A stretch of DNA of 55,246 bases, taken from IMG/VR virus record IMGVR_UViG_3300045988_088672; one strand, 5' to 3'. The notes beneath the pieces were generated by a model, which saw nothing but the letters and a program-made list of their open reading frames with translations, had not been told where the DNA came from and made no database searches. Made by a program: the position numbers and the translations under genes. The DNA comes from a virus. This document shows, piece by piece, positions 3,516-55,246 of the stretch (positions within the stretch are counted from its first letter, which is position 1; the number at the start of each line of letters is the position of its first letter).

Positions 3516-3536
3516 GAAAAAGTTTACATAAAAGTG

Positions 3537-3565
3537 TTGACATTTCTATTTTTATGTGTTACAAT
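3537..3565 (+). promoter_or_regulatory. Early-class promoter cassette copy 2
   Basis: TTGACATTTCTATTTTTATGTGTTACAAT is identical to the copy at 804. Confidence 0.75.
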
Positions 3566-3599
3566 AAAAACATAATAAAGAAAGGTAAAGGTGATTATT

Positions 3600-7518: not shown

Positions 7519-8789
7519 TGGTAGAATTACAGATAATAAACCGGGTATTAAAAGACAAAAATACTTCTCTATTAGATTTGAACGACATCACAAGAGACTA
7601 TTTTAATCAGTATCAAGAAGAATATGACTATATCATGGAACACAAACAGGAATATGGAAATGTGCCGGATTTGGAAACATTCATAGCAAAGTTCCAGGAT
7701 TTTGACGTGATCAATGTATCTGAAAGCACTGAATATCTTGTGAATACATTTAGAGAAGAATATCTATATTTTCAGTCGGTTCCGGTGCTTACGAAGATGG
7801 CGGAACTATTACAGACAGATGCATATTCCGCCGTTGATTACTTAAAATCAAAATTACCGGAATTAAAGATTGATGGGGCAGTAAAAGGGACAGATATCAT
7901 TTCACAAGCAAGGGAAAGACTTGAAGAGTGGAAAGAAACAAAAGATAATCAAGATACACACTTTATAGCAAGTGGATTTGAAGAGATTGATAACGACTTG
8001 GGGGGTTGGCATAAAGGAGAGGAATTAGTTGTTTTATTTGCACGAACTGGACAAGGAAAATCATGGGTGCTTATTAAAATGTTAGAACATGCATGGAAAG
8101 TATATCATGCAAGAGTAGGACTTTTAGAGCCTGAAATGTCAGCCAGTAAAACAGGATATAGATTTGATACTGTACATCAACATATATCATCTAAAGCACT
8201 GTATAAAGGCGAAGATGTGCAAGGTTATGAAAAATATATAAACAGGTTAGCTGATAATGGTACTCCGTTCTATGTTGCACATCCTAGAGATTTTCAAAAG
8301 AAAGTAACGGTATCAAAGTTAAAAAGTTGGTGCGAAAGTAACAAGTTGGATATGCTGGCAATAGATGGTATCTCTTATCTGCAGGATGAACGAGGAAAAA
8401 GGGGAGATAATAAAACAACACAGCTGACGAACATATCCGAAGATTTAATGCAATTAAGCATTGACTTAAAAATCCCAGTGCTGGTTGTTGTACAATCAAA
8501 CAGGGAAGGAACAATAAATGAAGATTTACAGCTTGAAAATATAAGAGACTCAGATGGAATTGCTTATAATGCGTCAATCGTTCTTTCAATTCAGCAAAAG
8601 GAAGAAGGCTTGCAGATACAAGATGTAAAAGCCCGAAATTCAAAAGTAGGAATAAAATGGGTTTATGCTTGGGATACAGATAAAGGAACATTTGATTATA
8701 TCCCTAACCCAGAAAAAGGAAAAGAAGATGATGAAAAAAGCGAAGATTTAAGGCGAAGATATCATGATAGAGAAAGTGAGGAATATTAA
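7518..8789 (+). CDS. dnaB: DnaB-family replicative helicase
   Basis: GFEEIDNDLGGWHKGEELVVLFARTGQGKSWVL (Walker A), DGISYL and VVVQSNREG follow the DnaB C-terminal RecA-fold pattern. Confidence 0.85.
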   Translation: MVELQIINRVLKDKNTSLLDLNDITRDYFNQYQEEYDYIMEHKQEYGNVPDLETFIAKFQDFDVINVSESTEYLVNTFREEYLYFQSVPVLTKMAELLQTDAYSAVDYLKSKLPELKIDGAVKGTDIISQARERLEEWKETKDNQDTHFIASGFEEIDNDLGGWHKGEELVVLFARTGQGKSWVLIKMLEHAWKVYHARVGLLEPEMSASKTGYRFDTVHQHISSKALYKGEDVQGYEKYINRLADNGTPFYVAHPRDFQKKVTVSKLKSWCESNKLDMLAIDGISYLQDERGKRGDNKTTQLTNISEDLMQLSIDLKIPVLVVVQSNREGTINEDLQLENIRDSDGIAYNASIVLSIQQKEEGLQIQDVKARNSKVGIKWVYAWDTDKGTFDYIPNPEKGKEDDEKSEDLRRRYHDRESEEY

Positions 8790-9084: not shown

Positions 9085-10128
9085 TTGATAAAACTACAAG
9101 ATACAATTATACAAACCGATACACAGTCTGTCTTGGATATGCTTAAATTTGATTTGGCACAGCATGGGGTTAATAGGTTTCATATTTTTAGAAACAATGG
9201 CGAAAATGTGCAAACGAATTGTCCTTTCCACAAGAACGGACAAGAACGAAAGCCGTCTTTCGGTGTAAATGGAGAAATTGATAAATGCCATTGCTTTGCT
9301 TGTGGCTGGGCTGGTACAATAGAGGAAATGATATCCGAATTATACGGATATAAAGATGAAGGAAAGTTTGGAAAACGGTGGCTTATAAAAAGATTTAATA
9401 CAGTAGAAATTGAAACAAGACCAAATATAATGGAGGGGTTTAATGGACGAGAAATCAATAAGCAAATATATACAAGAGAACCCGGAAAAATGGAGACGGT
9501 ATTTGTCAAAGATGGAGGAACACAACGAACAAAAAGCAAAGAGATTAAAGGAGGAACTGGAACAGTTACAGGAGAAAACGGAATCACAGAAGAAGAATTA
9601 GATAAATATAGATATATTCATCCTTATATGTATGAAAGAGGATTAACCGATGAAATTATAGAAAGGTTTGATATAGGATATGACAAAGAGCGAAAAGAGA
9701 TTACTTTCCCGGTCAAAGACATTGAAGGAAGATTTTTATTCATTGCAGGAAGAAGTGTCGAACGCAAATTTTTCAGACTCCCGAAAGATACGGATAAACC
9801 GTTGTATCAAGGATATAGATTTACGGATGGAAGTTATAAATACTGTTATATCACAGAATCTTTTTTGAATTGCTTGACTTGCTGGAAATATAATAAGCCG
9901 TCTATGGCTATGATAGGCACCGGAAATCAAAAACAATATGAAATATTGAATAAGTTGCCTGTGCGTGAATATATTCTTGCATTTGACCCGGACGAAGCTG
10001 GAAGAAAAGCAATAGAAAGATTTAGAAAGAATGTACATGGAAAGATTATAAAAGAACTTGTATATGCAGATAATCGTGATATAAATGACTTGCAAGAAGA
10101 ATTTTTGAAGTGCAAAATAATTTTTTAA
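9085..10128 (+). CDS. dnaG: DnaG-type DNA primase (CHC2 zinc finger + TOPRIM)
   Basis: CPFHKNGQERKPSFGVN...CHCFACGWAG is a CHC2 finger. AFDPDEAGRKA is the TOPRIM acidic motif. TTG start. Confidence 0.85.
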   Translation: MIKLQDTIIQTDTQSVLDMLKFDLAQHGVNRFHIFRNNGENVQTNCPFHKNGQERKPSFGVNGEIDKCHCFACGWAGTIEEMISELYGYKDEGKFGKRWLIKRFNTVEIETRPNIMEGFNGREINKQIYTREPGKMETVFVKDGGTQRTKSKEIKGGTGTVTGENGITEEELDKYRYIHPYMYERGLTDEIIERFDIGYDKERKEITFPVKDIEGRFLFIAGRSVERKFFRLPKDTDKPLYQGYRFTDGSYKYCYITESFLNCLTCWKYNKPSMAMIGTGNQKQYEILNKLPVREYILAFDPDEAGRKAIERFRKNVHGKIIKELVYADNRDINDLQEEFLKCKIIF

Positions 10129-10145
10129 AAATTTCAAAAAACCTA

Positions 10146-10174
10146 TTGACAACCCTATTTTTATGTGTTACAAT
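10146..10174 (+). promoter_or_regulatory. Early-class promoter cassette copy 3
   Basis: TTGACA 10146-10151, 17-bp spacer, TACAAT 10169-10174 with TGT. The upstream TTTCAAAAAACCTA is shared with the other copies. Confidence 0.75.
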
Positions 10175-10218
10175 ATAATTGTAAATAAGAAATACATAAA
10201 ACAAGGAGGATACATATT

Positions 10219-10491
10219 ATGACAGCACACGAAAAGGTAACAATGTTAGTAAAACAGGCAGAGGAAATCATTTCCGATGGATATGAAATGAAAGTAAATG
10301 GCGGAAAGGTGCTTTTTGATTTAGAGGGCACTAAAAATATGCAGACAAGAATGCACAAAGAATTGAATAAGTGGTACGAAAGATGTGAAATACTTAAATT
10401 GCATAATAAGTTATCTGTCGAAGAATTTCTATTACGACAGAAAATATACTATTCAATATTCTATTCAATCAATGCAATGACAATAGAATAA
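10219..10491 (+). CDS. Hypothetical protein
   Basis: ORF track, 90 aa. The AAGGAGGATACATATTATG leader is identical to the one at 31033-31053. Confidence 0.6.
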   Translation: MTAHEKVTMLVKQAEEIISDGYEMKVNGGKVLFDLEGTKNMQTRMHKELNKWYERCEILKLHNKLSVEEFLLRQKIYYSIFYSINAMTIE

Positions 10492-10702: not shown

Positions 10703-10879
10703 AGCGAGGTATGACGGACTACCCCAGACCCAAGTAATTAGTAAAAACAGTAAATGAACCTAGGATAGTTTGCTTAGTATGAAAATTATAGCTCCGATTA
10801 TAATCTATATTAGTGAGGTTGAGAGGTGGAATGAGGGGCTAATGACGATTAGCTAAGTAGCTAATATGGATTATATTAT

Positions 10880-10951
10880 AGCCCTATCGCCAAAAGGTAA
10901 GGCACAGGACTTTGATTCCTGCATTTGTTGGTTCGAATCCAACTAGGGCTG
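10880..10951 (+). tRNA. tRNA-Gln (anticodon TTG)
   Basis: Hand-folded cloverleaf: acceptor AGCCCTA/TAGGGCT, anticodon stem CAGGA/TCCTG, loop CTTTGAT, T arm GTTGG-TTCGAAT-CCAAC. Length 72 nt. Confidence 0.85.
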
Positions 10952-11099
10952 TGATACCCTGGCAGACAAAAAAGTAAAGGACCGGATATTCGAAATGCGT
11001 TCATTGGGGTATCATTAAGATAAACAGGAATAAAGCTGGGAATACTGTTTTCTGAAAAACTTACCATGAGGGAAGACATAGGTTCTTCCCTCGAATTAA

Positions 11100-11173
11100 G
11101 GAAGATTAGTTCAGTTGGTGAGAGCATCCGGCTCATAACCGGAAAGTCGTAGGTTCGAATCCTACATCTTCCA
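11100..11173 (+). tRNA. tRNA-Met (anticodon CAT; elongator type, or Ile2 if lysidine-modified)
   Basis: Acceptor GGAAGAT/ATCTTCC, D arm GTTC-AGTTGGTGA-GAGC, anticodon stem TCCGG/CCGGA, loop CTCATAA, T arm GTAGG-TTCGAAT-CCTAC. Confidence 0.85.
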
Positions 11174-11371
11174 CTAGGTCAAATTCTTTATTCTTTTCTT
11201 GCTGACCTATAAATCCAAGAAAAAGAACGTTATGAATGCAAAGCCGGTTTTTCGATAAAATCCTTAGAAGTTGGAAGGTAGATAGTATGTGTTAATGGGT
11301 CTATCATGGTCATTCTGTGGTTGTTTGATCAAAAACTAAAACAACTAAAACATTTAAGAAAGGAAGAAATT

Positions 11372-12539: not shown

Positions 12540-14801
12540 ATGGCATTATCATTTGCAAGACCAAAAAGCAATGATAAGAATATAATCAAGAAATCAAAAA
12601 CAGTAACAAATAGAACAAGTATTAAGGGCGGCGGAAATAATCTAGCCGCTCAGATACAATCTATCGTTGCTATTGCTAATCAAAAGTTAGCAATACACAA
12701 GGATGATTATATTCTTATCCGAGAGCCAGATCAGTTATACGAATATATGAAGGAAATGAAGCAAGTTGGGGAAGGTGCACTTGATACAGAGACCACAGGT
12801 TTAAATCCGTTACTTGTAGATATAGTTGGTGGATGTATTTATGCACCCGGACAAAAAGCTGCTTATATTCCAATAAATCATAAATCGTATATTACAGGTG
12901 TAAGAACTAAAGACCAGTTAGACGAACAGACAGTTTCAAAGATTATGAAAGAGTTTCATAAAGATATAAGATGGATTTTTCATAATGCAAAATATGATAT
13001 ACGTGTCTGTCGAAAGACACTTGGAATTGATTTCAAGCCTTATTGGGATACCATGTTGGCGGCATATTGCATTGATGAGGAAGAAAGCCACCGGTTGAAA
13101 GATTTACATTTGAAGTATTGTGATAGCAAGGATACAGAATCTTTGACATTTGATTCCTTGTTTAATGGTATAACATTTGATAATATTCCAATTTCAACTA
13201 GTTATTTATACGCCGCAGGTGACGCAATTAAGACATATGAACTTTATATGTATCAAAAAACATTACTAAATCGAAAGGTTCTATCCGGACCTTATAATGT
13301 ATTCTGGAATATTGAGATGCCACTTATTCCAGTTGTGGCGGATATGGAAGATAGAGGTGTATGCTTGGATTTTGATGTTTGTAAAAATCTACATGAAAAA
13401 TATCATAAGATTAAGGAAGAACGACAGAAACAAGCAGATGATGCTCTTAGTATGTATGCGACGGAAATTGAGAATTATAAGATGGAACATCCGAATAATA
13501 AGTTATCTGACCCGATATCTTTGCGTAGCCCGATGCAGTTAGCAGTTCTTTTTTATGATATTTTAGGATTGACAAGTCCGAATAAAAAATCACCACGAGG
13601 TACCGGTGAGGATATTCTCAAATATTTTGCACAAGGAAAGGAAAAAAACTTATGCGAAGCGATATTGGGTATAAGAAATGTTGAGAAGCTGTTGGGAACG
13701 TACATTGATAAAATGCCGAAAATTGCTTTAGCTGATGGTCGTATTCATGCAAGTTATAATCAGTATGGAGCTAAAACGGGAAGATTTTCAAGTAGTGACC
13801 CGAACTTGCAGAATATCCCGTCTCATAACAAAGAAATCCGTCATATGTTTAAGGCACAGGATGGATATGTTTTAATCGGCGGAGATTACAGTCAGCAGGA
13901 GCCACGATTGACTGCTCATTGCTCCAATGACGAAAAGATGAAAGAATCATATCATCAAGGAAAAGATATATATGCCACGATTGCTTCATTGGCATTTGAT
14001 AAGCCTTATGAAGAATGTAAAGAGTTCAGAGAAGATGGAACAGTAAATCCAGAGGGCAAGGAAAGAAGAAGTCAAGCAAAGGCTATAGTTTTAGGCGTCA
14101 CTTACGGAAAAGGTATTCCAGCAATCGGTGAAGATTTAGGAATATCAACACAAAAGGCACAAGCCGTATACGACAAAGTAATGGAAAGTTTTCCAATGCT
14201 TGAAAAGTTCATGCATGATACACAGAAAAAAGCTAGAGAACACGGCTATGTAGAAACTCCTTGGGGCAGACGTAGACATTTGAAAGATATGCAACTTGAA
14301 TCTTATATTTTTAAGTATGATGGAAAAGTGACTAACTTTGACCCATTAGCTTTTGGAAGTGATGTATCAACAGAAGTTCCGGAAAGAATAAAAAAGGAAT
14401 ATACAAAGAAACTTGATAAATGCAGATTTTACAAAGAAAGAATAAAAGTAGGAAATGATTTACAGGACCAAGGAATATCAGTAACTTATAACACAAATAA
14501 AATAGCACAAGCGGAAAGGCAATGTGTAAATAGTGTTATTCAAGGTGGGGCGGCGGATATGGCTAAGCTTGCAATGATACACATTAACAATGATGAAATT
14601 ATGAAAGAGTTAGATTTTCATTTGCTTATATGTGTGCATGATGAATTTATAGGGGAATGCCCGATTGAGAACGCAAAGAAAGCAAGTGAAAGATTAGCGC
14701 AACTAATGATAGATGCCCCAAAAGGAAAGATTGATATTCCTATGAAAGTGGATTGTGAAATAACTAGAAACTGGTATGGAGAAAGCGTGGAAATAAATTA
14801 A
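12540..14801 (+). CDS. polA: Family-A DNA polymerase (PolI-like) with 3'-5' exonuclease domain
   Basis: ALDTETTGL (Exo I), YAAGDA (Exo III), RFSSSDPNLQNIP (motif A region), RRSQAKAIVLGVTYG (motif B) and CVHDEF (motif C). Confidence 0.9.
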   Translation: MALSFARPKSNDKNIIKKSKTVTNRTSIKGGGNNLAAQIQSIVAIANQKLAIHKDDYILIREPDQLYEYMKEMKQVGEGALDTETTGLNPLLVDIVGGCIYAPGQKAAYIPINHKSYITGVRTKDQLDEQTVSKIMKEFHKDIRWIFHNAKYDIRVCRKTLGIDFKPYWDTMLAAYCIDEEESHRLKDLHLKYCDSKDTESLTFDSLFNGITFDNIPISTSYLYAAGDAIKTYELYMYQKTLLNRKVLSGPYNVFWNIEMPLIPVVADMEDRGVCLDFDVCKNLHEKYHKIKEERQKQADDALSMYATEIENYKMEHPNNKLSDPISLRSPMQLAVLFYDILGLTSPNKKSPRGTGEDILKYFAQGKEKNLCEAILGIRNVEKLLGTYIDKMPKIALADGRIHASYNQYGAKTGRFSSSDPNLQNIPSHNKEIRHMFKAQDGYVLIGGDYSQQEPRLTAHCSNDEKMKESYHQGKDIYATIASLAFDKPYEECKEFREDGTVNPEGKERRSQAKAIVLGVTYGKGIPAIGEDLGISTQKAQAVYDKVMESFPMLEKFMHDTQKKAREHGYVETPWGRRRHLKDMQLESYIFKYDGKVTNFDPLAFGSDVSTEVPERIKKEYTKKLDKCRFYKERIKVGNDLQDQGISVTYNTNKIAQAERQCVNSVIQGGAADMAKLAMIHINNDEIMKELDFHLLICVHDEFIGECPIENAKKASERLAQLMIDAPKGKIDIPMKVDCEITRNWYGESVEIN

Positions 14802-14819
14802 GCAAATTTGAAAAACCTA

Positions 14820-14848
14820 TTGACATCTATACTTTTATGTGTTACAAT
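14820..14848 (+). promoter_or_regulatory. Early-class promoter cassette copy 4
   Basis: TTGACA 14820-14825, 17-bp spacer, TACAAT 14843-14848 with TGT. The downstream leader ATAATCAAAGTTAAGAAA is shared with copies 6-8. Confidence 0.75.
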
Positions 14849-14891
14849 ATAATCAAAGTTAAGAAACAAAGCAAATAAGGAGGTACATAAC

Positions 14892-15401
14892 ATGAAAAGA
14901 TATAAAAATAGAAAGAGTGGCATAATAGTAAATGTTATAGGTCAGAATGATGCAGAAAATAAAATTACTGTTGAATTTGCGGGTGGGAAGAATGCTGGCA
15001 AGCAGGTAAATTATAAATTAGCTTCATTTACGAAAAGCTGGAAATTTTTAGACGAAGTCCAGCCCACAAAAGAAGTAAATGAGCCTACAAAAGATGAAGT
15101 TAAAAAATCTAACACTGAGAAAGTTGATGTCATTGAGAAGATTGAGATTATGTCTAGTGCAATTAAATCAAAGGGCTACAATATAAAAATATATTCAGGA
15201 AGAATTCAAAACTTGAATATTAAAATGGAAAATAAGCATATTGCAGAGGTATGTTTGAAGCACAAAAAGATAGTTGTTTATACAAAAGAACAACTTACAG
15301 ATGAAAGTAAGAAAATAAACAATGGAAAATTTAAGACGCTGTTTTGTTACTCTGACAATTTTGCAAATGAAATAATGGAAATTATAGAAAGGAGCATGTA
15401 A
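14892..15401 (+). CDS. Hypothetical protein
   Basis: ORF track, 169 aa. AAGGAGG SD is upstream. Confidence 0.6.
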   Translation: MKRYKNRKSGIIVNVIGQNDAENKITVEFAGGKNAGKQVNYKLASFTKSWKFLDEVQPTKEVNEPTKDEVKKSNTEKVDVIEKIEIMSSAIKSKGYNIKIYSGRIQNLNIKMENKHIAEVCLKHKKIVVYTKEQLTDESKKINNGKFKTLFCYSDNFANEIMEIIERSM

Positions 15402-15402: not shown

Positions 15403-15816
15403 GTGGCACTTATAAAAGTGAATAAAAAAGATTATATGGAGGGAGACACTAAATATTCGAGAGCTATATCAATACCTCAATATGAAGTAAAGGGAGACAG
15501 ACCGTTCATAGAAGAACTATATTCAAATGAAAAAGTAATTAAATTATTAGACCATATCAAAAAGTCCGGTGTATCAGAGAATGAAAAGAAGTTTTTGACA
15601 ATAGCAGCGTATAGACATTATGTATTTAACTATAGTAGAATAGCAGAGTATTATGCTAGTGCTAGCAAAGAAATGCAGGAACTTATGGAGGAATCAGCAC
15701 TTGTGATTATTGATATTGATGATGCTATAAAAAATGGATATGTTAAATATAATAAGCGTATTCAGCAGATTATTGAAGATTCTAAAAAAGTAAAGGAGGA
15801 ATCTAATGAGAAGTGA
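15403..15816 (+). CDS. Hypothetical protein
   Basis: ORF track, 137 aa. GTG start lies 8 nt after AAAGGAG. Confidence 0.55.
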   Translation: MALIKVNKKDYMEGDTKYSRAISIPQYEVKGDRPFIEELYSNEKVIKLLDHIKKSGVSENEKKFLTIAAYRHYVFNYSRIAEYYASASKEMQELMEESALVIIDIDDAIKNGYVKYNKRIQQIIEDSKKVKEESNEK

Positions 15817-16657
15817 TTTTGCATGTTTTATCCTTTGTCATGGTAGACCAAATAATACACCCACATTTAGCACTTTAAGGAAGTACGGCTACACTGGTGC
15901 TATATATATAATCTGTGATGACGAGGATAAAACATTGCAGGAATATAGGAATATATATGGCGAGGACATTGTAAAGGTCTTTAATAAATTAGATGTTCTA
16001 CAAAAATTTGATACTATGGACTCTAGTGAAAATCGTGGATGCGCAGTGTACGCTAGAAATGCGTGTTTTGATATTGCTGAGGAGTTAGGAATAAGATATT
16101 TTTGTGAGTTAGATGATGATTATTTAGACATAACCATACGAAAGCCGGTTGAAGACAAATTACCGGTATTTAATCACAAAAATCTTGACCTTATTTTTGA
16201 AACATACATTGATTTTATGAATACAAACCCAAATATATATTCAGTAGCATTTGCACAAGCTGGAGATTATATTGGTGGTTATGCTTGTCAACTAATGAGT
16301 AATGGGTATAAACGTAAGTGTATGAATAGTTGGATTTGTGATGTTTCAAAAAGATTCATATTTAATGGTAGAATGAATGATGACGTTAATACCTATACAT
16401 TGGAGGGTTCACGCGGAAAAGTCTATATAACATTGCCATATGTATGTGTTAATCAGCCGGAGACTCAACAGGTTAGTGGCGGTATGACAGATATGTATAA
16501 AGGGGAAGGGACATACATTAAATCTTTTTATACTGTGATGTGCTGTCCAAGTTTTGCTTGTATTCATATTATGGGTTGGCACAATTATAGAATACACCAT
16601 AAAATAAATTGGGAACATGCTTGCCCTAAAATTATTTCTGATAAATGGAAAAAATAA
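15806..16657 (+). CDS. Putative GT-A-like glycosyltransferase (DxD motif)
   Basis: An N-terminal beta-alpha start (FILCHGRPNN) and a CELDDDY (DxD) motif resemble nucleotide-sugar transferases. Motif-level inference only. Confidence 0.35.
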   Translation: MRSDFACFILCHGRPNNTPTFSTLRKYGYTGAIYIICDDEDKTLQEYRNIYGEDIVKVFNKLDVLQKFDTMDSSENRGCAVYARNACFDIAEELGIRYFCELDDDYLDITIRKPVEDKLPVFNHKNLDLIFETYIDFMNTNPNIYSVAFAQAGDYIGGYACQLMSNGYKRKCMNSWICDVSKRFIFNGRMNDDVNTYTLEGSRGKVYITLPYVCVNQPETQQVSGGMTDMYKGEGTYIKSFYTVMCCPSFACIHIMGWHNYRIHHKINWEHACPKIISDKWKK

Positions 16658-16710: not shown

Positions 16711-18102
16711 TTGAATTATGATGAATTTCTAAAAACAAAAATAGAGCAATTCAATCCTTGTGGATTTGATTATGAACCTTCAAACAAAAATTTATTTGAT
16801 TTTCAAAGAGCTATTGTGAAGATAGCACTTAAAAGAGGAAAATCTGCATTGTTTCTTGATACAGGACTTGGAAAAACTATATGTCAGTTGTCATGGGCAG
16901 ATGAAGTGTATAAGCATACTGGAAAAAATGTACTTATACTTGCCCCGCTTGCGGTATCCGTTCAGACAAAAAGAGAGGGAGAAAAGTTCGGCGTTGAGGT
17001 AAATATTTGTAGAACGCAGGAGGATGTAAAAGACGGAATAAACATTACAAATTATGAAATGTTAGAACATTTTAATGCTGAAGAATTTATAGGAATTGTA
17101 CTTGATGAAAGTTCAATACTTAAATCATATAGTGGAAAAATGAAAACTGGCATAATAGAAAAGTTTGAGAATGTTCCTTATAAGCTATCCTGCACTGCCA
17201 CCCCATCTCCTAATGATACAATGGAGTTATTAAATCAAGCCGAATTTTTGAATGTTCTAAAATCGCATGAGGCATTGGCTGTATGGTTTGTAACTGACCA
17301 AAACTCAATGGGAGCATATAGATTAAAGCATCATGCAGAGGATGACTTTTGGACTTGGGTATCAAGCTGGGCAGTTCTTTTAAAAAAGCCGTCAGATTTA
17401 GGGTTTAATGATGATGGTTACGATTTGCCGCCTTTGTATGAGAAAGATGTTATAATTCCTGTATCATTAAAAAGTGAAGAAAAGGGAAGATTGTTGCGAA
17501 AAATTGAAATGTCAGCAACAAACTTCTATAAAGAAAAGAAACTAATTACAGATGAAAGAATAAAAAAGATTGCTGAAATAGCAAATAGCACAGATGAGCA
17601 GTATCTAATTTGGTGTTATACAAACGAAGAAAGTTCATTGTTACACAAAGCTATTGAAGGAAGTGTTGAGGTTAAGGGTTCAGATAAGCCAGAACACAAA
17701 GAGAAATCAAGTCTTGATTTTAAATCGGGGAAAATAAGAGTGCTTATATCAAAGGTATCTATTTTTGGTTTTGGTTTGAATTTTCAGAATTGCACAAAAT
17801 GTATTTTTTGCGGGTTAGATTATTCATATGAAAAATACTACCAAGCAGTAAGAAGATTGTACAGATTTGGACAGACAAAGGAAGTTACAGTATATAGAGT
17901 TTTGGGTTCAACAGAAAGTCATATACTTAATATATTGACTGACAAATACAGAAAGCAGGAGAATATGCAGGAGCATATGAACAAATGCACAAATAAACTA
18001 ATACTTGATGAAATGAATGGCAATAGAAAATTTAAGCTGAGCGAACAAAATACGGAAAATATAAGTTTTCCGAGTTGGTTAAAGGAGGAAACATATGAAT
18101 AG
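16711..18102 (+). CDS. DEAD/DEAH-box (SF2, SNF2-related) helicase
   Basis: LDTGLGKT (motif I), VLDESS (motif II), CTATPSPN (motif III) and a C-terminal helicase domain with YYQAVRRLYRFGQ (motif VI). TTG start follows AAAGGAGAAAG. Confidence 0.8.
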   Translation: MNYDEFLKTKIEQFNPCGFDYEPSNKNLFDFQRAIVKIALKRGKSALFLDTGLGKTICQLSWADEVYKHTGKNVLILAPLAVSVQTKREGEKFGVEVNICRTQEDVKDGINITNYEMLEHFNAEEFIGIVLDESSILKSYSGKMKTGIIEKFENVPYKLSCTATPSPNDTMELLNQAEFLNVLKSHEALAVWFVTDQNSMGAYRLKHHAEDDFWTWVSSWAVLLKKPSDLGFNDDGYDLPPLYEKDVIIPVSLKSEEKGRLLRKIEMSATNFYKEKKLITDERIKKIAEIANSTDEQYLIWCYTNEESSLLHKAIEGSVEVKGSDKPEHKEKSSLDFKSGKIRVLISKVSIFGFGLNFQNCTKCIFCGLDYSYEKYYQAVRRLYRFGQTKEVTVYRVLGSTESHILNILTDKYRKQENMQEHMNKCTNKLILDEMNGNRKFKLSEQNTENISFPSWLKEETYE

Positions 18103-19009
18103 TGTAGTTAAAAATGATTATGCAATTTATAATGGAGATTGTGTAGAGTTGATGAAAACAATGCCTGATGAAAGTATCGACTTTTCTATATTTTCGCCGC
18201 CATTCGTAAATTTATATATTTATAGTGATGATTTACGAGATATGGGTAATTGTAAAGACAGTGAAGAGTTCTTTCAGCAAATGCAGTTTATGACGGAACA
18301 TTTGCACAGAATATTAAGGACAGGCAGGCTTGTAGCAGTTCATTGCAAAAATACAGTGAAATATAAAAATCGTGACGGAGTTGCCGGTTGGTATGATTTT
18401 AGAGGAGATTTAATAAGGCATTTTGAAAAGAATGGCTTTCAGTATCATTCAGAGGTTTGCATATGGACCGACCCTGTAAGAGAAATGCAGAAAACAAAGA
18501 CACAAAGATTATTATATTGTCAGTTACAGAGAGATGCAAGTCATACTGGAATTGGTATGCCTGAGTATCTTGTAATCTTCAGAAAGTGGGGTGATGAAAG
18601 TAAAGAAATCCCTATTAAGCATTATAAGAATGAAAAGCAGATGGAAGAAGATAATGGAGAGCCATTACAGTTAGTTGACCTTGAAACATGGCAGAGATAT
18701 GCAAGTCCTGTTTGGTTCGATATTAAACGTACAGATGTATTAAGCGGAAAGATGGCAAGAGACGAAAAAGATGAAAAGCATATCTGTCCACTACAGTTGG
18801 AGGTTATTCAAAGAGCGGTTGAGCTATGGACTAATCCTGGAGAGGTAGTATTTACCCCATTCATGGGGATAGGTTCAGAAGTATATCAAAGTTTGAAACT
18901 TCATAGAAAAGCGATAGGTGTTGAATTAAAGGAAAGCTATTTTAATCAAGCGGCTGAAAATTGCAAAATGGCAATATCAGATAGAGTAGAAAGAAAGAGA
19001 TTATTTTAA
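18095..19009 (+). CDS. N4/N6 DNA methyltransferase (beta-class, N6_N4_Mtase type)
   Basis: The catalytic SPPF motif (FSPPFVNLY) is near the N-terminus and the AdoMet motif FTPFMGIGSE near the C-terminus. The start overlaps the helicase stop. Confidence 0.85.
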   Translation: MNSVVKNDYAIYNGDCVELMKTMPDESIDFSIFSPPFVNLYIYSDDLRDMGNCKDSEEFFQQMQFMTEHLHRILRTGRLVAVHCKNTVKYKNRDGVAGWYDFRGDLIRHFEKNGFQYHSEVCIWTDPVREMQKTKTQRLLYCQLQRDASHTGIGMPEYLVIFRKWGDESKEIPIKHYKNEKQMEEDNGEPLQLVDLETWQRYASPVWFDIKRTDVLSGKMARDEKDEKHICPLQLEVIQRAVELWTNPGEVVFTPFMGIGSEVYQSLKLHRKAIGVELKESYFNQAAENCKMAISDRVERKRLF

Positions 19010-20171: not shown

Positions 20172-20200
20172 TGGTTAGTTAAAAACTAACCATCTTTTTT
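20172..20200 (+). terminator. Rho-independent terminator
   Basis: Stem TGGTTAGTT/AACTAACCA followed by TCTTTTTT. Confidence 0.75.
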
Positions 20201-20221
20201 AGTTTATTTTCAAAAAACCTA

Positions 20222-20250
20222 TTGACATTTCTATTTTTATGTGTTACAAT
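20222..20250 (+). promoter_or_regulatory. Early-class promoter cassette copy 6
   Basis: TTGACATTTCTATTTTTATGTGTTACAAT is an exact consensus copy. Confidence 0.75.
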
Positions 20251-20296
20251 ATAATCAAAGTTAAGAAATACATAGAAAGGTTAAAAGGTGATTATT

Positions 20297-20695: not shown

Positions 20696-20780
20696 AAATG
20701 AACGAGAGAATGTAATCTTAGAGTACTTACTAGCCTATGAGGTTTCAAAGTAAGCAACCTGTATGAAAATCCGTTCATTT
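20696..20780 (+). promoter_or_regulatory. Structured 85-nt element in the 5' region of the ArdC-N-like gene
   Basis: A closing helix pairs AAATGAACG (20696-20704) with CGTTCATTT (20772-20780). Inner complementarities are CTTAC/GTAAG and AGGTT/AACCT. TATAAT lies at 20681-20686, just upstream. Confidence 0.45.
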
Positions 20781-20807
20781 ATAAACAAAACAAGGAGGAT
20801 ACATACT

Positions 20808-21077
20808 ATGATAAACACAGCTATTATATTAGACTATATGCAATTAAATAATTTAGATCCTAATAAGGTTATTTTGCATACATATGCCACCTGGAAGAAA
20901 TTAGGATATCAAGTTAAGCAAGGCGAGAAATCAGCACATAAGATTCCAGTCTGGAGAAGATCCACAAAGAAGATTGAAAATGAGGAAGGAGAAAAGGAAG
21001 AAGTGGACAATGGAAGATATTTCTTGAAAGAATCTGCCTTTTTCACACAAGCACAAGTAGAGGTGATTGATGAATGA
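20808..21077 (+). CDS. ArdC N-terminal-like (DUF1738-type) ssDNA-binding protein
   Basis: TYATWKKLGYQVKQGEKSAHKIPVW matches the ArdC-N pattern (W..LG..VKKGEK..I..W). ATG 20808 follows AAGGAGGA. Confidence 0.4.
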   Translation: MINTAIILDYMQLNNLDPNKVILHTYATWKKLGYQVKQGEKSAHKIPVWRRSTKKIENEEGEKEEVDNGRYFLKESAFFTQAQVEVIDE

Positions 21078-24722: not shown

Positions 24723-25678
24723 TGGAACTTGTAGAATTAATGAAAAGTATATCATACAATGCTATTCCGCATTTTCTTATTCTTTATGGCGAGGAACAAA
24801 CCATTCTGGATATGTACATACAAAAGATTGTACAAGCGACAGGAGCAAAGAAATTTAATTTTGAGTCTGTTTCGTTAGCAGTTAAGCACTCCGGAAAGAA
24901 AAGTCTTGATAAGTCAACAAAACTGTATACGATTATTGACGATAATGCGTTTATAAAAGCAGAGGATAATTGGGGGCAAGTAAAGGATTCAATGAATAAG
25001 AACTACCTTATTATTCGATATAATTCTTTGGATAAACGTTCCGCATTTTTCAAAAGAAATAAAGAAAATATTGTGGAATTTTCTCATCTTACCCATGATG
25101 TTTTATCACAGTATATAAGCCGAGATTTGCCGGACTTGTGTGAAGATAATGCGAATAAATTGGTGGAATATTGCAATTATGATTATGGTAGAATACTGAT
25201 GGAAATTGATAAAATCAAACAATGGCAGGAACATTATACTGATAATGAAGGTACACCTAAAACTGATTCTGTCTTTAAGTTATTAGATAAACAAGGATTA
25301 TTCTATAAAGAAATAGGGGATATCACCTTTGAATTGACAGATGCAGTCTTGGGTGGATACCCGGAAACAGCCATGCAGAAGTTAGATGAAGCAAAGTGGA
25401 AAGGTGAGCCTGCCATGATGATTGCTTCTATACTATACAATGGATTCCGGAATCTTTTGGCTTATCAAGGTTTAGGAAGTAATAAGAAAGGTGCAGTAGA
25501 AAGAACAGGACTTTCTAAAGGCGATATATGGAGATGTAGTAAGAATGTTGGTGGCTATAGTATTGAAGAAGTAAAAAGAAATATGCTTATTTGTCAGAAT
25601 ATAGAATCCGGGATAAAGACTGGAATTGTAGACGAAGACATTGCATTGGAATATTTGGTACTATCTTGTTTAAAATAA
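24722..25678 (+). CDS. holA: Clamp-loader delta (HolA)-like subunit
   Basis: The 318-aa size, an N-terminus IPHFLILYGEEQTILDMY like HolA (Y.lyGeE.yL), and the position after the DnaX-like and delta-prime-like genes. Confidence 0.5.
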   Translation: MELVELMKSISYNAIPHFLILYGEEQTILDMYIQKIVQATGAKKFNFESVSLAVKHSGKKSLDKSTKLYTIIDDNAFIKAEDNWGQVKDSMNKNYLIIRYNSLDKRSAFFKRNKENIVEFSHLTHDVLSQYISRDLPDLCEDNANKLVEYCNYDYGRILMEIDKIKQWQEHYTDNEGTPKTDSVFKLLDKQGLFYKEIGDITFELTDAVLGGYPETAMQKLDEAKWKGEPAMMIASILYNGFRNLLAYQGLGSNKKGAVERTGLSKGDIWRCSKNVGGYSIEEVKRNMLICQNIESGIKTGIVDEDIALEYLVLSCLK

Positions 25679-25692
25679 TTTCAAAAAACCTA

Positions 25693-25721
25693 TTGACATT
25701 TCTATTTTTATGTGTTACAAT
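25693..25721 (+). promoter_or_regulatory. Early-class promoter cassette copy 7
   Basis: Exact TTGACATTTCTATTTTTATGTGTTACAAT preceded by TTTCAAAAAACCTA. Confidence 0.75.
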
Positions 25722-25766
25722 ATAATCAAAGTTAAGAAATAAAAATATATTAGGAGGTAATTACAT

Positions 25767-26018
25767 ATGAAAGGATTTGATATTTTTTATAAATTAAAAG
25801 AGGCATACGAGGTAAGCACAAAAAACAATAATTTTTTTGCTGCCTTGTTGAACTCCATTACATGGGATGAAAAATATGAAGCTGATAATGAATTATATTT
25901 TGTGAAGGGTGACTTCACATTCATGACACCATCTTTAGATCCATTTAGAATGCCTTGGTCACCATCAGCAGTATTAGAGGACAGAAATGTACTTGAATTT
26001 TTTGGAGGTGCGATATGA
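25767..26018 (+). CDS. Hypothetical protein
   Basis: ORF track, 83 aa. AGGAGG SD is upstream. Confidence 0.6.
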   Translation: MKGFDIFYKLKEAYEVSTKNNNFFAALLNSITWDEKYEADNELYFVKGDFTFMTPSLDPFRMPWSPSAVLEDRNVLEFFGGAI

Positions 26019-30914: not shown

Positions 30915-30924
30915 TTATCAACAA

Positions 30925-30956
30925 GTTATCCACATTAAATTGTGGATAACTTTTTT
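30925..30956 (+). terminator. Rho-independent terminator whose stem is a pair of inverted perfect DnaA boxes
   Basis: GTTATCCACA-TTAAAT-TGTGGATAAC followed by T6. TTATCCACA is the DnaA-box consensus. TTATCAACA lies at 30915-30923. Confidence 0.8.
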
Positions 30957-30977
30957 GAAAAATTTTTAAAAAACCTA

Positions 30978-31006
30978 TTGACATTTCTATTTTTATGTGT
31001 TACAAT
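30978..31006 (+). promoter_or_regulatory. Early-class promoter cassette copy 8
   Basis: Exact TTGACATTTCTATTTTTATGTGTTACAAT. The leader through the ATGACA start matches 10184-10224. Confidence 0.75.
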
Positions 31007-31050
31007 ATAATCAAAGTTAAGAAATACATAAAACAAGGAGGATACATATT

Positions 31051-31569
31051 ATGACAAAGAAAGAAGCAATGCAAAAACAGTATAAAGAGTGGGAGGAAAG
31101 TATCAATAATATGTCAGCAGAGGAAATGAAAGCTGATTTATTGAATAATTGTGAGCTGTCTTTTACTGATAGTCGTTTATTAAAAAGAAAGATGAAGGAT
31201 GGGTTTCTTCGTAAAATGTACAAAGCCTATCACCCATTTGTAAACCCAGCTGAGGAGGGTTATAACTTTATCATGCGTAAGTATGAGGGGTTATTAGATA
31301 CCCTGTATAGAGTATTTGATGTGGAAGGCGCTGTACAGCATGAGGTTACAGAAGCTTTCCAATACTCCAAGGAGGACTTGGCGGATCTGAATAAGGAACG
31401 TAATCAATATAGATCCGATAGATCTAAGGAAATTCTGGAAGAATATAAAGCTAAATATTCGCATGATGATGTGCTGGAATATTTAGAAGATGACCCGTCC
31501 ATTAGTTATGGGCACAAATTTGATATCGAAAAAGTATTTTCGGATCTTAACAAGTGGGCAGAAGAGTAA
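31051..31569 (+). CDS. Hypothetical acidic protein
   Basis: ORF track, 172 aa. Confidence 0.6.
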   Translation: MTKKEAMQKQYKEWEESINNMSAEEMKADLLNNCELSFTDSRLLKRKMKDGFLRKMYKAYHPFVNPAEEGYNFIMRKYEGLLDTLYRVFDVEGAVQHEVTEAFQYSKEDLADLNKERNQYRSDRSKEILEEYKAKYSHDDVLEYLEDDPSISYGHKFDIEKVFSDLNKWAEE

Positions 31570-31584: not shown

Positions 31585-32106
31585 ATGTTAGATGAACAGC
31601 AGAAAAAAATTGTAGCAGAAAATCATAACTTAATATACTATGCTTTGAGCAAGTATAAGTTGAATCCGGAAGAGTATTATGACATACTCGCTATTGGCTT
31701 ATGCAAAGCCGCAATTGCCTTTGACCCGGAAAGGTCAAAGTTCGCAACATACGCAATGAAGGTCATGTATAATGAATTTTTAATGCAGGTCAAGCATGAA
31801 AATGCTAATAAAAGAGAAGCAAATAAGAATGTGCTTTCTTTAAATTACAGACTAAATGATCATAAAAATGAAGGTCATATATGTGAATTTGGAGAGTTAT
31901 TGACAGATGGGAGAGAACCATTCATGGATGTGGTTCATATGTATCTTCCGGATATACTAACAAAGAAAGAGCTTTTAGTATGCCAGCTTTCATATGATGG
32001 TTATGACCAGACACAAATCGGAGAAAAGATGGGTGTGACACAGTCTTATGTTAGCAGATTATTAAAGAAAGCAAGAATTAAATTAGAAAAGGAGATGGTA
32101 TTTTGA
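31585..32106 (+). CDS. Sigma-70-family RNA polymerase sigma factor (regions 2 and 4)
   Basis: Region 2-like NHNLIYYALSKY...ILAIGLCKAAIAFDPERSKFATYA. Region 4 HTH is QTQIGEKMGVTQSYVSRLLKKA. Confidence 0.8.
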   Translation: MLDEQQKKIVAENHNLIYYALSKYKLNPEEYYDILAIGLCKAAIAFDPERSKFATYAMKVMYNEFLMQVKHENANKREANKNVLSLNYRLNDHKNEGHICEFGELLTDGREPFMDVVHMYLPDILTKKELLVCQLSYDGYDQTQIGEKMGVTQSYVSRLLKKARIKLEKEMVF

Positions 32107-32468
32107 ATACAGCTAAAAATTTTAGAAAAATATTGAGAGGGGACGTATATTGGGTTGATTTAAGTCCTCTAAGTGATGTAGTAAAACATATGGAAGGCGG
32201 TGTTAGACCAGTGGTCGTTGTAAGCAACTCGTATAATAACAAATACTGCGACCTTTTAAACGTCATCCCTATGACATCAAAAAAAGATAAATTGCCACAG
32301 CATCAGTCAGTTACGGTAATGCACAAGAAAGACCCAAGAAAGAGTTATTTGCTCCCGGAAAATACGTGCGTTATAAATAAGAATCAATTGCGGAATTTTA
32401 TCTGTCATTTGGACCCACGTTCAATAAGCAACATGAACCGGGCAATAATGACACAGTTCGAGTTATAA
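32103..32468 (+). CDS. mazF: MazF/PemK (EndoA-like) endoribonuclease toxin
   Basis: RGDVYWVDLSP...GGVRPVVVVSN...VIPMTS...KLPQH closely parallels B. subtilis EndoA ([28 protein letters not shown]...). TTG start overlaps the sigma stop by 4 nt. Confidence 0.8.
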   Translation: MNTAKNFRKILRGDVYWVDLSPLSDVVKHMEGGVRPVVVVSNSYNNKYCDLLNVIPMTSKKDKLPQHQSVTVMHKKDPRKSYLLPENTCVINKNQLRNFICHLDPRSISNMNRAIMTQFEL

Positions 32469-32473: not shown

Positions 32474-32656
32474 GTGAAACTAAAGGATATGATGAACAAA
32501 TTAAATCAAACAACGTGCAAAAGATGTGGAAGAAAGTTGAAGAATGAAAAAGCGATAGAAATAGGAATGGGAGCAATATGCTGGAAAAAGTATCAGGCAG
32601 AAAATAATCATAAAAAATTATGGAAGGAGAAACAAAATGGAAGATTTTATGAATAA
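32474..32656 (+). CDS. Small basic zinc-ribbon protein (CxRCGRxL...GxGxxC motif)
   Basis: ORF track, 60 aa. Contains CKRCGRKLKNEKAIEIGMGAIC. GTG start, which is uncertain. Confidence 0.5.
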   Translation: MKLKDMMNKLNQTTCKRCGRKLKNEKAIEIGMGAICWKKYQAENNHKKLWKEKQNGRFYE

Positions 32657-32849
32657 GTGTTTTGAGGAATATGAAAAAATATATGGCAAAGGTGCTAAAA
32701 TGGAAGATGGAGAGGCACAGGTTTTTGAACTACAGGACTGTACGATCATAGTCAGATTAAGATATGGAGATCTGTCAGTAGAAGTTCTTGGAGATAAGCC
32801 TATCAAATGTGATTTTGCATCTGGTCTGTTTGTGGAAAGCGAGGAATGA
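32637..32849 (+). CDS. Hypothetical acidic small protein
   Basis: ORF track, 70 aa. AAGGAGAA SD is upstream. Confidence 0.55.
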   Translation: MEDFMNKCFEEYEKIYGKGAKMEDGEAQVFELQDCTIIVRLRYGDLSVEVLGDKPIKCDFASGLFVESEE

Positions 32850-32852: not shown

Positions 32853-33215
32853 ATGACATTGAATGATTTAAAAACTGGAATGATAGTTACCACAAGAAAT
32901 AGTGTTTCTTATATTGTCATGAGGGATTTTGTTGATTCCGGAGATATTTTGGCGGGTATTTCTGATAATGAAAATATAACAAGTTCATATACTGAGTTAA
33001 GTAATTATGAACAAGACCTGAAACACAATAAATTACCAGGACTTGATATAATGTCAGTATACACTTCTTATTCATATGGTATAGACATATCGAAAAAACT
33101 TCTTTGGAAACGTGAAGAATACAGGGAGGTAACAATGAAAGAGCTAGAAGAGCTATTCGAATGTAAGGTAAAAATTGTAGATGAGGATAAATTGTCGAGG
33201 AGGATGAGTAAATGA
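32853..33215 (+). CDS. Hypothetical protein
   Basis: ORF track, 120 aa. Confidence 0.55.
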   Translation: MTLNDLKTGMIVTTRNSVSYIVMRDFVDSGDILAGISDNENITSSYTELSNYEQDLKHNKLPGLDIMSVYTSYSYGIDISKKLLWKREEYREVTMKELEELFECKVKIVDEDKLSRRMSK

Positions 33216-33367
33216 AGAAAAAATTATCAAACCTACTATTTGCAATATCAATAGTAATGATTATATGGTTCGGAGTATCTGTATTAGAAATTGCAAATAA
33301 GAATATGTATTCAAAAGATTATAGTGAGTACAATCTTATAATTATGATTTCAAATCTTATGGAATAA
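33212..33367 (+). CDS. Small membrane protein (51 aa, not in ORF track)
   Basis: Hand translation gives MKKKLSNLLFAISIVMIIWFGVSVLEIANKNMYSKDYSEYNLIIMISNLME*. SD GAGGAGGA is upstream. Confidence 0.5.
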   Translation: MKKKLSNLLFAISIVMIIWFGVSVLEIANKNMYSKDYSEYNLIIMISNLME

Positions 33368-33376
33368 GGAGACTAT

Positions 33377-33580
33377 ATGGATAGAAATATACAAACCTGT
33401 TGCAAAGATTGCAAAGAACGAACATATAAATGTCATTCTTCTTGTCCGAAGTATAAGGAGTTCCAAAAACAAAATGAAGAAAAGAGGCAGGTGCTATATA
33501 AAAGACAAGGAGAACTAAATGACTATTTAGGTGTTAAGTTCAAAGGATTGAATAGAATATACAGAAAGAAAAGAAAATAA
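33377..33580 (+). CDS. Cys-rich small protein
   Basis: Contains CCKDCKERTYKCHSSCPKY. 67 aa. Confidence 0.55.
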   Translation: MDRNIQTCCKDCKERTYKCHSSCPKYKEFQKQNEEKRQVLYKRQGELNDYLGVKFKGLNRIYRKKRK

Positions 33581-33587: not shown

Positions 33588-33622
33588 AAAAAGTATAGGA
33601 TATAATGTCCTATACTTTTTTT
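33588..33622 (+). terminator. Rho-independent terminator
   Basis: A 13-bp perfect stem pairs AAAAAGTATAGGA with TCCTATACTTTTT and runs into a T tract. Confidence 0.85.
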
Positions 33623-33623: not shown

Positions 33624-33651
33624 TTTACAAATTTAAAAATTGTGTTATAAT
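33624..33651 (+). promoter_or_regulatory. Late-class promoter (CTTTACAAAT...TTGTGTTATAATAAAA) ahead of the packaging operon
   Basis: TTTACA 33624-33629, 16-bp spacer, TATAAT 33646-33651 with TGT. Its flanks are shared with the promoter at 39278. Confidence 0.6.
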
Positions 33652-55047: not shown

Positions 55048-55246
55048 TGGATGATAGACAATTTGATATATTAGACATATTAAATATATTGTCTTTTATC
55101 ATAGGGGTTAAAAATATAAATGAGAACTTATCTCAAAATACTGCCGGAGATTTATTATCTGCGGCAGTTAAAGAGATACATGAACATTTATCCGAACAGG
55201 ACAGAAAGATTGATTTAATTCTAAAAAAGTTAGGAGTTGATTATAA
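55047..55246 (+). CDS. Hypothetical protein, 5' part (continues across the genome junction to position 133)
   Basis: ATG overlaps the preceding stop (TAATG). Translation starts MDDRQFDILDILNILSFIIGVKNINENLSQNTAGDLLSAAVKEIHEHLSEQDRKIDLILKKLGVDY... The window ends mid-codon. Confidence 0.5.
   Translation, partial: MDDRQFDILDILNILSFIIGVKNINENLSQNTAGDLLSAAVKEIHEHLSEQDRKIDLILKKLGVDY
55148..55246. repeat. Terminal direct repeat, copy 2 (identical to 1..99)
   Basis: Read directly from the sequence. Confidence 0.95.

Follow-up and report, generated by a model that had tools for sequence, protein, structure and literature searches.

A MazF-family gene without a recognisable antitoxin behind a sigma factor gene in a gut phage genome

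Why would a phage carry the gene for a MazF-like toxin directly behind a sigma factor gene, with no antitoxin beside it? The question was raised by the viral record IMGVR_UViG_3300045988_088672, a stretch of 55,246 nucleotides (nt) that we analysed at full length and refer to as the window, and in which the open reading frame (ORF) at 32103..32468 was found to encode such a protein. We propose, with a probability of roughly 0.5, that this protein is a solitary endoribonuclease made at the time of infection, that it belongs to a phage clade devoid of antitoxins, and that it is not one half of a toxin-antitoxin (TA) module. The proposal builds on the fold, conservation and distribution of the gene, from which we infer its activity as an RNase.

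In order to establish the identity of the protein, sequence profiles, structure prediction and residue conservation were combined. The ORF (121 residues, + strand, with a TTG start and an AGGAG Shine-Dalgarno (SD) sequence 8 nt upstream of it) matched PF02452, PemK_toxin, at E 9e-18 and 64.9 bits against a cut-off of 23.1, the match running over residues 12-118 of 121 and profile positions 2-108 of 109, as well as phrog_1936, 'MazF-like growth inhibitor', at E 3.6e-22. Its best relatives of solved structure were B. subtilis EndoA/YdcE, B. anthracis MoxT and S. aureus MazF (E about 1e-13), and EndoA itself was recovered by phmmer at E 2e-13 and by BLASTP with 36% identity over 112 residues (E 1e-21). 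The segments RGDVYWVDLSP, GGVRPVVVVSN and IPMTS, from which a preliminary description had recognised a MazF/EndoA-like protein, were all present and aligned with the columns of the catalytic Arg25 and Thr48 of EndoA, and the gene is an intact homolog, as that description had it. An AlphaFold model from a 10-sequence alignment (at least 81% identity) had a predicted local distance difference test score (pLDDT) of 41.5, and a 66-sequence alignment was used instead; the resulting AlphaFold2 model reached a pLDDT of 91.3 and a predicted template-modelling (TM) score of 0.85, and showed the SH3-like barrel of MazF/Kid/CcdB. Its top Foldseek match was the B. subtilis MazF-RNA structure 4mdx_A (E 1.7e-10, TM-scores 0.79/0.83, root-mean-square deviation (rmsd) 2.4 A). 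Among the 129 PDB chains found at E<=0.001, the best 50 were all of the MazF/PemK family, and every UACAU-type Firmicute MazF ranked above the M. tuberculosis and E. coli enzymes.

The catalytic residues were conserved as well. Arg35 and Thr58 of the window protein align to R25 and T48 of B. subtilis MazF (MazF-Bs), which are essential there (PMC8634880, PMC10893535; residue roles are taken from these two papers). Both residues, together with the G-x-R-P and L-P-x-H motifs, were invariant in seven alleles of the gene that share 32-41% identity, and the catalytic Arg and Thr were at least 90% conserved across 66 homologs. Within the window's own lineage the ratio of nonsynonymous to synonymous substitution rates (dN/dS) was 0.08-0.12 for MazF and 0.10-0.15 for the sigma gene, compared with 0.04-0.05 for the large terminase subunit TerL. 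MazF is thus under purifying selection, with a dN/dS of about 0.1. Taken together, sequence and model identify the ORF as a MazF/PemK-family protein, atypical in one loop, and as a predicted RNase.

We then asked whether the gene has a conventional partner. No MazE, AbrB, ribbon-helix-helix (RHH) or Phd domain was detected in the neighbouring genes or in the whole plus-strand proteome at E<=0.01, the antisense ORFs near MazF contained no antitoxin-type domain, and no AbrB, RHH, Phd/YefM or HTH-Xre antitoxin lay beside the gene. An adjacent antitoxin defines a type II TA module, so its absence here means that the locus is not one; the lack of a recognisable antitoxin, first remarked for the adjacent genes, holds for the neighbours, the whole genome and the antisense ORFs alike. 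The self-contained, autoregulated bicistronic operon of type II modules was not found either: MazF is the third gene of an eight-gene unit, and the promoter module of this unit is common to six others. An RNA antitoxin of type III was also ruled out, as no tandem repeats and no Rfam families occurred near MazF, the DNA upstream being sigma coding sequence. PADLOC gave no defence-system match for any gene of the unit.

The earlier suspicion that one of the neighbours might hide a cryptic antitoxin, above all the 60-residue zinc-ribbon protein or the 70-residue acidic protein, was not borne out. Four neighbours were considered: p172 (31051..31569, + strand), a 172-residue acidic protein that opens the unit; the zinc-ribbon protein DUF6011 (32474..32656, + strand; PF19474 at E 1.7e-8; its true start may be an ATG near 32489); the acidic p70 (32637..32849, + strand), which has no family; and p120. 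None of them had a Pfam, NCBIfam, PADLOC or PDB-sequence relative suggestive of an antitoxin, and their profiles found no antitoxin-type PDB relatives. Further evidence came from related phages, which were collected with TerL as an anchor: 54 loci (51 viral contigs and 3 contigs of metagenome-assembled genomes, MAGs) with 52-97% TerL identity. When L001 was added, 41 loci were informative on gene presence and absence. p172 was shared by the window with L001 alone, and p120 with L001 and L054 alone; with no family or PDB match, both were dropped as candidates. p70, whose profile had no PDB relative at all, was rejected on co-occurrence. It was found in only two MazF-carrying lineages and was missing from most of the MazF-carrying relatives, including L054 at 94% TerL identity; it also occurred in phages that lack MazF and, as the homologs P0027 and P0029, upstream of TerS in prophages where no PemK gene is encoded within 10 kb. 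DUF6011 was encoded by nearly all relatives, among them at least 20 phages without MazF, and this presence with or without the toxin marks it as a core gene rather than a dedicated partner. Nothing tied it to MazF, although some inhibition by it is conceivable. MazE-type inhibitors mimic RNA with acidic tails, and the DUF6011 protein, unlike them, is basic.

Similar findings were made throughout the wider clade. A first scan of IMG/VR with the single MazF protein gave no matches, and TerL anchoring and a clade alignment succeeded: a profile of the cassette alleles found 322 relatives in IMG/VR and 1,160 proteins at E<=1e-8 in a large protein collection, where a break in the scores sets apart about 70 clusters. 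The neighbourhoods of 80 of the 322 IMG/VR loci were fetched. Their neighbouring genes fell into many unrelated clusters (helicase/primase, integrase, glycosyltransferase, DUF6870), none with a MazE, AbrB, RHH or Phd domain, and no canonical antitoxin stood beside MazF in the other sampled contigs, a prophage-like region of a 927-kb contig included. An orphan MazF, which had seemed unusual for a phage, is therefore the norm for this clade. The PemK-like protein of Siphoviridae sp. ct6GI21 (P0043) represents one of the roughly 70 clusters, and the contigs encoding it show the order sigma-MazF-DUF6011-TerS-TerL; the window MazF is a direct member of these PHROG 1936 or 'PemK-like' gut phage records and has the same gene order. 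BFVD also contains many phage 'PemK-like' structures. MazF-like growth inhibitors are some of the most frequent auxiliary genes in gut viromes (PMC12291355) and are accessory genes of staphylococcal prophages (PMC6507118), no function being assigned in either case, and in the literature searched we found no description of the missing antitoxin, the sigma coupling or the function of the PHROG 1936/PemK-like genes, whose records hold annotation only.

Two further observations concern MazF genes outside the TerL-anchored phages. In L103 and about 26 similar IMG/VR loci (such as L108, L110 and L117), a gene for a DUF6870 protein of 82-90 residues overlaps the 3' end of MazF by 20 nt; the two could form a toxin-first, non-canonical TA pair on small contigs resembling mobile elements. 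A tblastn search of a phage collection with MazF gave 10 matches, most of which proved to be alr-mazF loci of bacterial chromosomes that had been submitted as unverified 'phage' contigs; they are uninformative on phage context. In four of these bacterial loci (L057, L058, L059 and L062; INPHARED records MT835527.1, MT835478.1, OR846762.1 and OR846620.1), acpS or NAD(P)HX epimerase and alr are followed, 11-57 nt after alr, by an EndoA-type mazF, with no intervening ORF of at least 40 residues for MazE.

The gene immediately upstream of MazF, at 31585..32106 on the + strand, encodes a sigma-70-family factor of 173 residues. It matched Sigma70_r2 (E 1.9e-6, 28 bits) and Sigma70_r4 (E 2.1e-6, 27.6 bits), both above the Pfam cut-offs, phrog_351 (E 6e-22) and TIGR02937 (65 bits against a cut-off of 42.9). 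The closest NCBIfam models were those of the sporulation factors SigK and SigE, with scores so far below the equivalog cut-offs that the protein is not an ortholog of either. Its TGA stop (32104-32106) and the TTG start of MazF (32103-32105) overlap by 4 nt (TTGA), exactly where the preliminary description had placed the overlap, and an overlap of this kind makes the two genes, on sequence grounds, a translationally coupled pair. Overlaps of this kind were seen in at least six lineages: ATGA in L004 and L010, GTGA in L055, 8 nt in L007, 11 nt in L151-L153, and 1 nt in L023 and L154. An independent link was seen in the unrelated phage L096 (2983-3917), where MazF precedes, in reverse order and with an ATGA overlap, a 195-residue sigma-70 protein with regions 2 and 4 that is 22% identical to the window sigma.

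Presence and absence across the relatives showed how the pair is distributed. Both genes were present in 10 of the 41 informative loci, MazF alone in 3, sigma alone in 2, and neither in 26. The site was constant, between the clamp-loader delta subunit or RecA region and DUF6011-p77-TerS, and phages with 93-97% identical TerL carried MazF alleles just 32-41% identical to that of the window. Sigma and MazF thus constitute a two-gene mobile accessory cassette, exchanged between close relatives in the form of divergent alleles, as is typical of accessory genes for host interaction. A DNA search of INPHARED with the 2.4-kb region returned zero matches.

Some loci depart from the common arrangement. 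MazF directly follows the delta subunit, with no sigma, in L158; L042 has sigma without MazF; and in L031, L013 and L033 only a small membrane ORF precedes MazF, again without sigma. Small hydrophobic or multi-transmembrane ORFs of 59-136 residues, with no obvious homology to one another, were found immediately 5' of MazF at 7568-7807 in L013/L033, at 7965-8183 in L031 and at 8006-8185 in L028, where the 59-residue hydrophobic ORF lies between sigma and MazF. An ORF of the same kind stands directly 5' of MazF, without sigma, at 2482-2892 of L002, the virulent herellevirus Lactobacillus phage LpeD. In L032 a 218-residue ORF (7773-8429) fuses sigma in frame to DUF6011 at the place where MazF sits elsewhere, MazF being cleanly absent; either MazF was cleanly deleted here, or the fusion is a natural one and hints that sigma and DUF6011 are linked.

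These arrangements bear on the possibility that the antitoxin is merely unconventional. In a non-canonical TA or regulator pair, MazF would be neutralised by the sigma factor, which occupies the antitoxin position and has a helix-turn-helix in region 4, by DUF6011 or by the small membrane ORFs, and superinfection exclusion or abortive infection, directed at competing phages, might be its role. The strong co-occurrence of sigma and MazF would fit such a pair, as would a coupling that is kept across alleles of 32-41% identity and reversed in an unrelated phage. DUF6011 follows MazF in every MazF-carrying locus of the TerL-anchored set and is fused to sigma in L032, and the overlap with DUF6870 shows that unconventional partners exist in the clade. 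However, L013, L031, L033 and L158 carry MazF but no sigma, L032 and L042 carry sigma but no MazF, the basic DUF6011 is at home in many phages lacking the toxin, and neither an antitoxin-type DNA-binding domain nor an autoregulated bicistronic operon was detected. On balance we regard a neutralising neighbour as unlikely.

The distribution also bears on the sigma factor itself, which the preliminary description had regarded as a transcription-reprogramming factor. Its membership of the sigma-70 family is genuine, but it is not indispensable: it is missing, together with MazF, in 26 of the 41 relatives, and the packaging genes have a separate sigmaA-type promoter of their own. An accessory gene of this kind is not an essential late switch. 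This patchy distribution matches the reported non-essentiality for lytic growth of the sporulation-like sigma factors of Bacillota phages (Schwartz et al. 2022, PMC9429907). The window protein resembles these in being a short, dispensable sigma-70 protein closest to SigK and SigE; it differs in that it is an ortholog of neither, and no link to MazF was described for them.

When in the infection cycle would MazF be made? The eight genes of the unit are arranged in the order p172, sigma, MazF, DUF6011, p70, p120, p51, p67. Upstream of them, a perfect 12-bp hairpin (AAGTTATCCACA / TGTGGATAACTT, with a 6-nt loop; 30923..30956, + strand) that runs into a T-run was read directly from the sequence and is likely the terminator of the preceding RecA unit; a consensus terminator scan did not list it, the T-run lying partly inside the stem. 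It is followed at 30978..31006 (+ strand) by a near-consensus, extended -10 promoter of the sigmaA type, TTGACA-17-TGtTACAAT. This promoter belongs to the last of seven near-identical promoter-plus-leader modules of about 75 nt (AAAAACCTATTGACATTTCTATTTTTATGTGTTACAATATAATCAAAGTTAAGAAATACATAAAACAAGGAGGATACATATTATG), which head early/middle units across the replication arm and of which none occurs in the late arm. By alignment, the module promoters lie at 804, 3537, 10146, 14820, 20222, 25693 and 30978, in regions 760-870, 3493-3597, 10102-10225, 14776-14898, 20178-20294, 25649-25773 and 30934-31057. The leader at 31025..31047 (+ strand) contains two UACAU(A) sites, one upstream of the SD and the other in the spacer that separates it from the ATG of the first gene. 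The unit ends with three small ORFs that vary among relatives (32853..33580, + strand), p120 (120 residues), p51 (51 residues, hydrophobic) and p67 (67 residues, Cys-rich), and is closed by a 13-bp palindromic hairpin (33588..33620, strand not assigned), after which the next strong promoter, TTTACA-16-TATAAT (33624-33651), drives p77-TerS-TerL. Since the cassette shares its promoter module with replication genes, it belongs to the host-sigmaA early/middle class.

The description of the phage as virulent-looking was found to be reasonable, though not proven. By a Pfam search of the whole window proteome, the genome encodes an SNF2 helicase, DnaB, a primase, a family-A polymerase (PolA), a second helicase, a sliding clamp, three clamp-loader subunits and RecA; neither an integrase nor a repressor was detected among its products. 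We picture the cassette, placed between the replication and packaging modules of a virulent-type gut siphophage of about 55 kb, as sharing a transcript, which starts at a host-sigmaA early/middle promoter, with six other small genes. With such transcription, MazF would be produced during infection, in step with sigma. Its most likely substrate would be the RNA of the host, with early phage transcripts as a possible second target, and the short motif at which it cuts would plausibly resemble UACAU, as it does in the closest structural relatives. As the infected cell is not meant to survive, the phage could do without an antitoxin.

To find traces of such cleavage, the UACAU motif of EndoA was counted in the window against a null model in which synonymous codons were shuffled within genes. 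Sense UACAU occurred 44 times in coding sequence against 71.7 expected (z -4.2, rank 22 of 961), and sense UACAUA 7 times against 22.1; their reverse complements were not depleted (z +1.0 and +0.5). Most of the words that were depleted more strongly than UACAU are palindromes, which points to restriction avoidance. The observed-to-expected ratio of UACAUA was 0.32 in the window, 0.57 in MazF-carrying relatives, 0.88 in close relatives without MazF, and 0.99 and 1.12 in two more distant groups, and in an unbiased scan of MazF-plus against MazF-minus phages UACAUA ranked 9th of 2,936 hexamers. L001, which has the same MazF allele at a synonymous distance (dS) of 0.3-0.7 from the window, had 5 UACAUA against 13.1 expected. 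Depletion in the window was stronger in late genes (1 against 7.2) than in early genes (6 against 13.9). This pattern is compatible with host or early-mRNA shut-off, as first suggested for the locus, and we regard it as suggestive and confounded.

Outside coding sequence the motif was frequent. Per kb, 4.2 UACAU sites were counted in non-coding and 0.86 in coding DNA, a 4.9-fold difference; this ratio was the highest of 30 words of the same composition and the 8th of all 5-mers, with ACAUA 3rd. Six genes have the motif in the stretch from SD to ATG (10219, 14892, 25767, 31051, 41107 and, within the spacer between ribosome-binding site and start, the sigma gene at 31585), and the toxin unit has no UACAU within its genes and three in leaders. 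A function of the intergenic sites as -10 elements of a SigE/SigK-like sigma is unlikely: the consensus of these factors is CATACA-T or CATA---TA, and the sites occur in the context aUACAUa(a/u), never with a C before it, several of them between SD and ATG.

Such leader sites recall RegB of phage T4, which inactivates early mRNAs by cutting GGAG in the SD sequences of their ribosome-binding regions (PMC1702504, PMC3014915). By analogy, MazF might mainly cut the phage's own sigmaA early/middle leaders at UACAU(A) and so stop early translation, the UACAU-poor late mRNAs escaping, while sigma brings about the matching change in transcription. The density of sites in non-coding DNA, their position between SD and ATG, the stronger scarcity of UACAUA in late genes and the confinement of the toxin unit's sites to leaders all speak for such a temporal switch. 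Yet the leader sites are mostly copies of one module of about 75 nt and are not independent, the GGAGGATACATATTATG context is also found, at low frequency, in relatives without MazF, the enrichment in leaders was not seen in other MazF-carrying lineages (1.9% of genes against 9% in the window), and the cleavage motif is assumed. A temporal switch of this type is therefore doubtful. The boldest form of the idea appears just as doubtful: sigma and MazF would be a dedicated two-component takeover switch moving between phages, a Gram-positive RegB analogue in which sigma redirects transcription and MazF cuts UACAU(A) in the SD-to-AUG spacers of sigmaA early/middle leaders and in host mRNAs, sparing motif-poor late messages; or, in a variant, the sigma-like protein would itself be the MazF inhibitor and represent a new class of antitoxin.

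Several points weigh against a solitary, active RNase with a UACAU-like target. Among 5-mers the depletion of UACAU has an empirical p of about 0.02. It is common to the whole subclade with at least 93% TerL identity, all informative members of which carry MazF, and is thus confounded with phylogeny, host, pressure from a host MazF and carriage of sigma. An identity of 36% to EndoA is too low for assigning the cleavage motif by homology. As DUF6011 is found after MazF in every MazF-carrying phage of the TerL-anchored set, an inhibitory role for it is possible, and a phage without an integrase need not be strictly lytic. In addition, a Glu in the beta1-beta2 loop that is required for substrate binding (E20 in MazF-Bs and MazF-Da, E24 in E. 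coli) is not conserved in the window protein, and enzymes mutated at this Glu lose cleavage or retain little of it (PMC8634880). When the loop is anchored on GGVRP, the window reads HMEGGVRP, with Met in the Glu column and Glu shifted by one position, and its relatives read H-x-Q-x-G-x-R-P, with Tyr or another residue in that column and then Gln; a 3-residue insertion makes the alignment of the loop ambiguous. Lacking this Glu, the protein may differ in activity or specificity.

A residue of the same loop, His29, is invariant in the clade, and the conserved Glu of canonical MazFs lies one residue downstream of it; His29 may be a catalytic or specificity adaptation. The altered loop could instead belong to a MazF fold that has been re-used without RNase toxicity, as an RNA- or protein-binding regulator such as an anti-sigma-like modulator, whose harmlessness would explain why no antitoxin is needed. 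Anti-sigma factors are typically encoded just downstream of their sigma and translationally coupled to it. MazF has this classic position with its 4-nt overlap, and the clade-specific His29 stands in place of a Glu important for cleavage (PMC8634880). Nevertheless, no recognised anti-sigma domain was found in it by Pfam, NCBIfam or Foldseek, its product having a MazF fold although position and overlap would fit, and several phages carry MazF without any sigma. Moreover, the invariance of the catalytic Arg, Thr and LPxH in very divergent alleles is hard to explain without catalysis, and we consider a harmless regulator quite improbable.

The preliminary description had also raised the possibility that MazF counters TA-based defence of the host, and we found no support for it. 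The phage protein would have to interfere with abortive infection by a host MazEF, sequestering MazE or forming inactive heterodimers. Precedents exist in that phi3T AimX and YosL bind and inactivate host MazF (PMC10769878) and UACAU-type MazEF pairs cross-neutralise (PMC10893535). However, sequestering MazE would free the host MazF, to the detriment of the phage, a decoy needs no intact catalytic site, and there was neither a comparative signal nor a PADLOC match. Counter-defence is accordingly very unlikely, and we retain the solitary endoribonuclease as the preferred reading.

The phage that carries the cassette deserves a brief description. The first 99 nt of the window (1-99) are identical to the last 99 (55148-55246), so it represents a complete circular assembly of 55,147 bp, with about 34% G+C and every gene on the same strand. 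Besides the replication genes, the Pfam search identified TerS, TerL, an SPP1-type portal, head and tail genes and an endolysin-like domain. A TET-associated glycosyltransferase (PF20691, E 6e-30; 15806-16657, flanking ORF 15403-15816) adjoins DNA polymerase and helicase genes, which suggests hypermodified, glycosylated phage DNA, and an N6/N4 methylase (18095-19009) and an ArdC-N-like domain (20763-21077) may serve DNA modification or anti-restriction. The early region contains genes for tRNA-Gln(UUG) (10879-10952) and tRNA-Met(CAU) (11100-11174). Palindromes are avoided beyond codon usage (GATC 54 against 144 expected, GGCC 4 against 35, ATTAAT 1 against 34, GAATTC 2 against 21.5). GATC is nearly absent from close relatives without MazF (5 against 499; L012-L044), and this difference between the groups points to different restriction pressure and probably to hosts other than those of the window's subclade. 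The relatives are contigs of about 45-58 kb from human-gut metagenomes. In a scan of genome contigs, only three short, misbinned MAG contigs of inconsistent taxonomy were found, and neither a host nor an integration site is obtainable from these; the host is likely to belong to the human-gut Clostridia.

How does the protein compare with known systems? With EndoA/MazF-Bs, S. aureus MazF, B. anthracis MoxT and C. difficile MazF it shares the fold (TM-score about 0.8, rmsd 1.7-2.4 A) at 33-36% identity, and with EndoA and the UACAU-specific Firmicute MazFs the catalytic Arg and Thr, G-x-R-P, LPxH and a similar length. In contrast to these enzymes, it is phage-encoded, has no MazE upstream, does not lie beside alr or the sigB operon, and has a loop with a 3-residue insertion, no conserved Glu and a clade-specific His. 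With T4 RegB it would have in common that it is a phage-encoded, antitoxin-less, sequence-specific early RNase of toxin-like fold. This is a functional analogy that rests here on motif statistics: RegB is unrelated in sequence and fold, targets GGAG, needs ribosomal protein S1 and comes from a Gram-negative myovirus. RegB has a RelE/YoeB-like fold, and no RegB-type match was found by Pfam, PHROG or Foldseek, all of which place the window protein in MazF/PemK.

In summary, solitary phage MazFs are common but little studied, and, already annotated as PemK-like, they do not constitute a novel type of system. Research on MazF mostly treats it as one half of a TA pair; here we describe a whole clade of phage MazFs that lack a recognisable antitoxin whatever their context, and that are common in human-gut viromes. 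If the protein is active, phages would use a classic bacterial "suicide" RNase offensively, as a Gram-positive counterpart of T4 RegB, and the clade would offer naturally antitoxin-free MazF variants for biotechnology. If instead it is inactive, or neutralised by sigma or DUF6011, the locus would reveal a new class of partner for the MazF fold.

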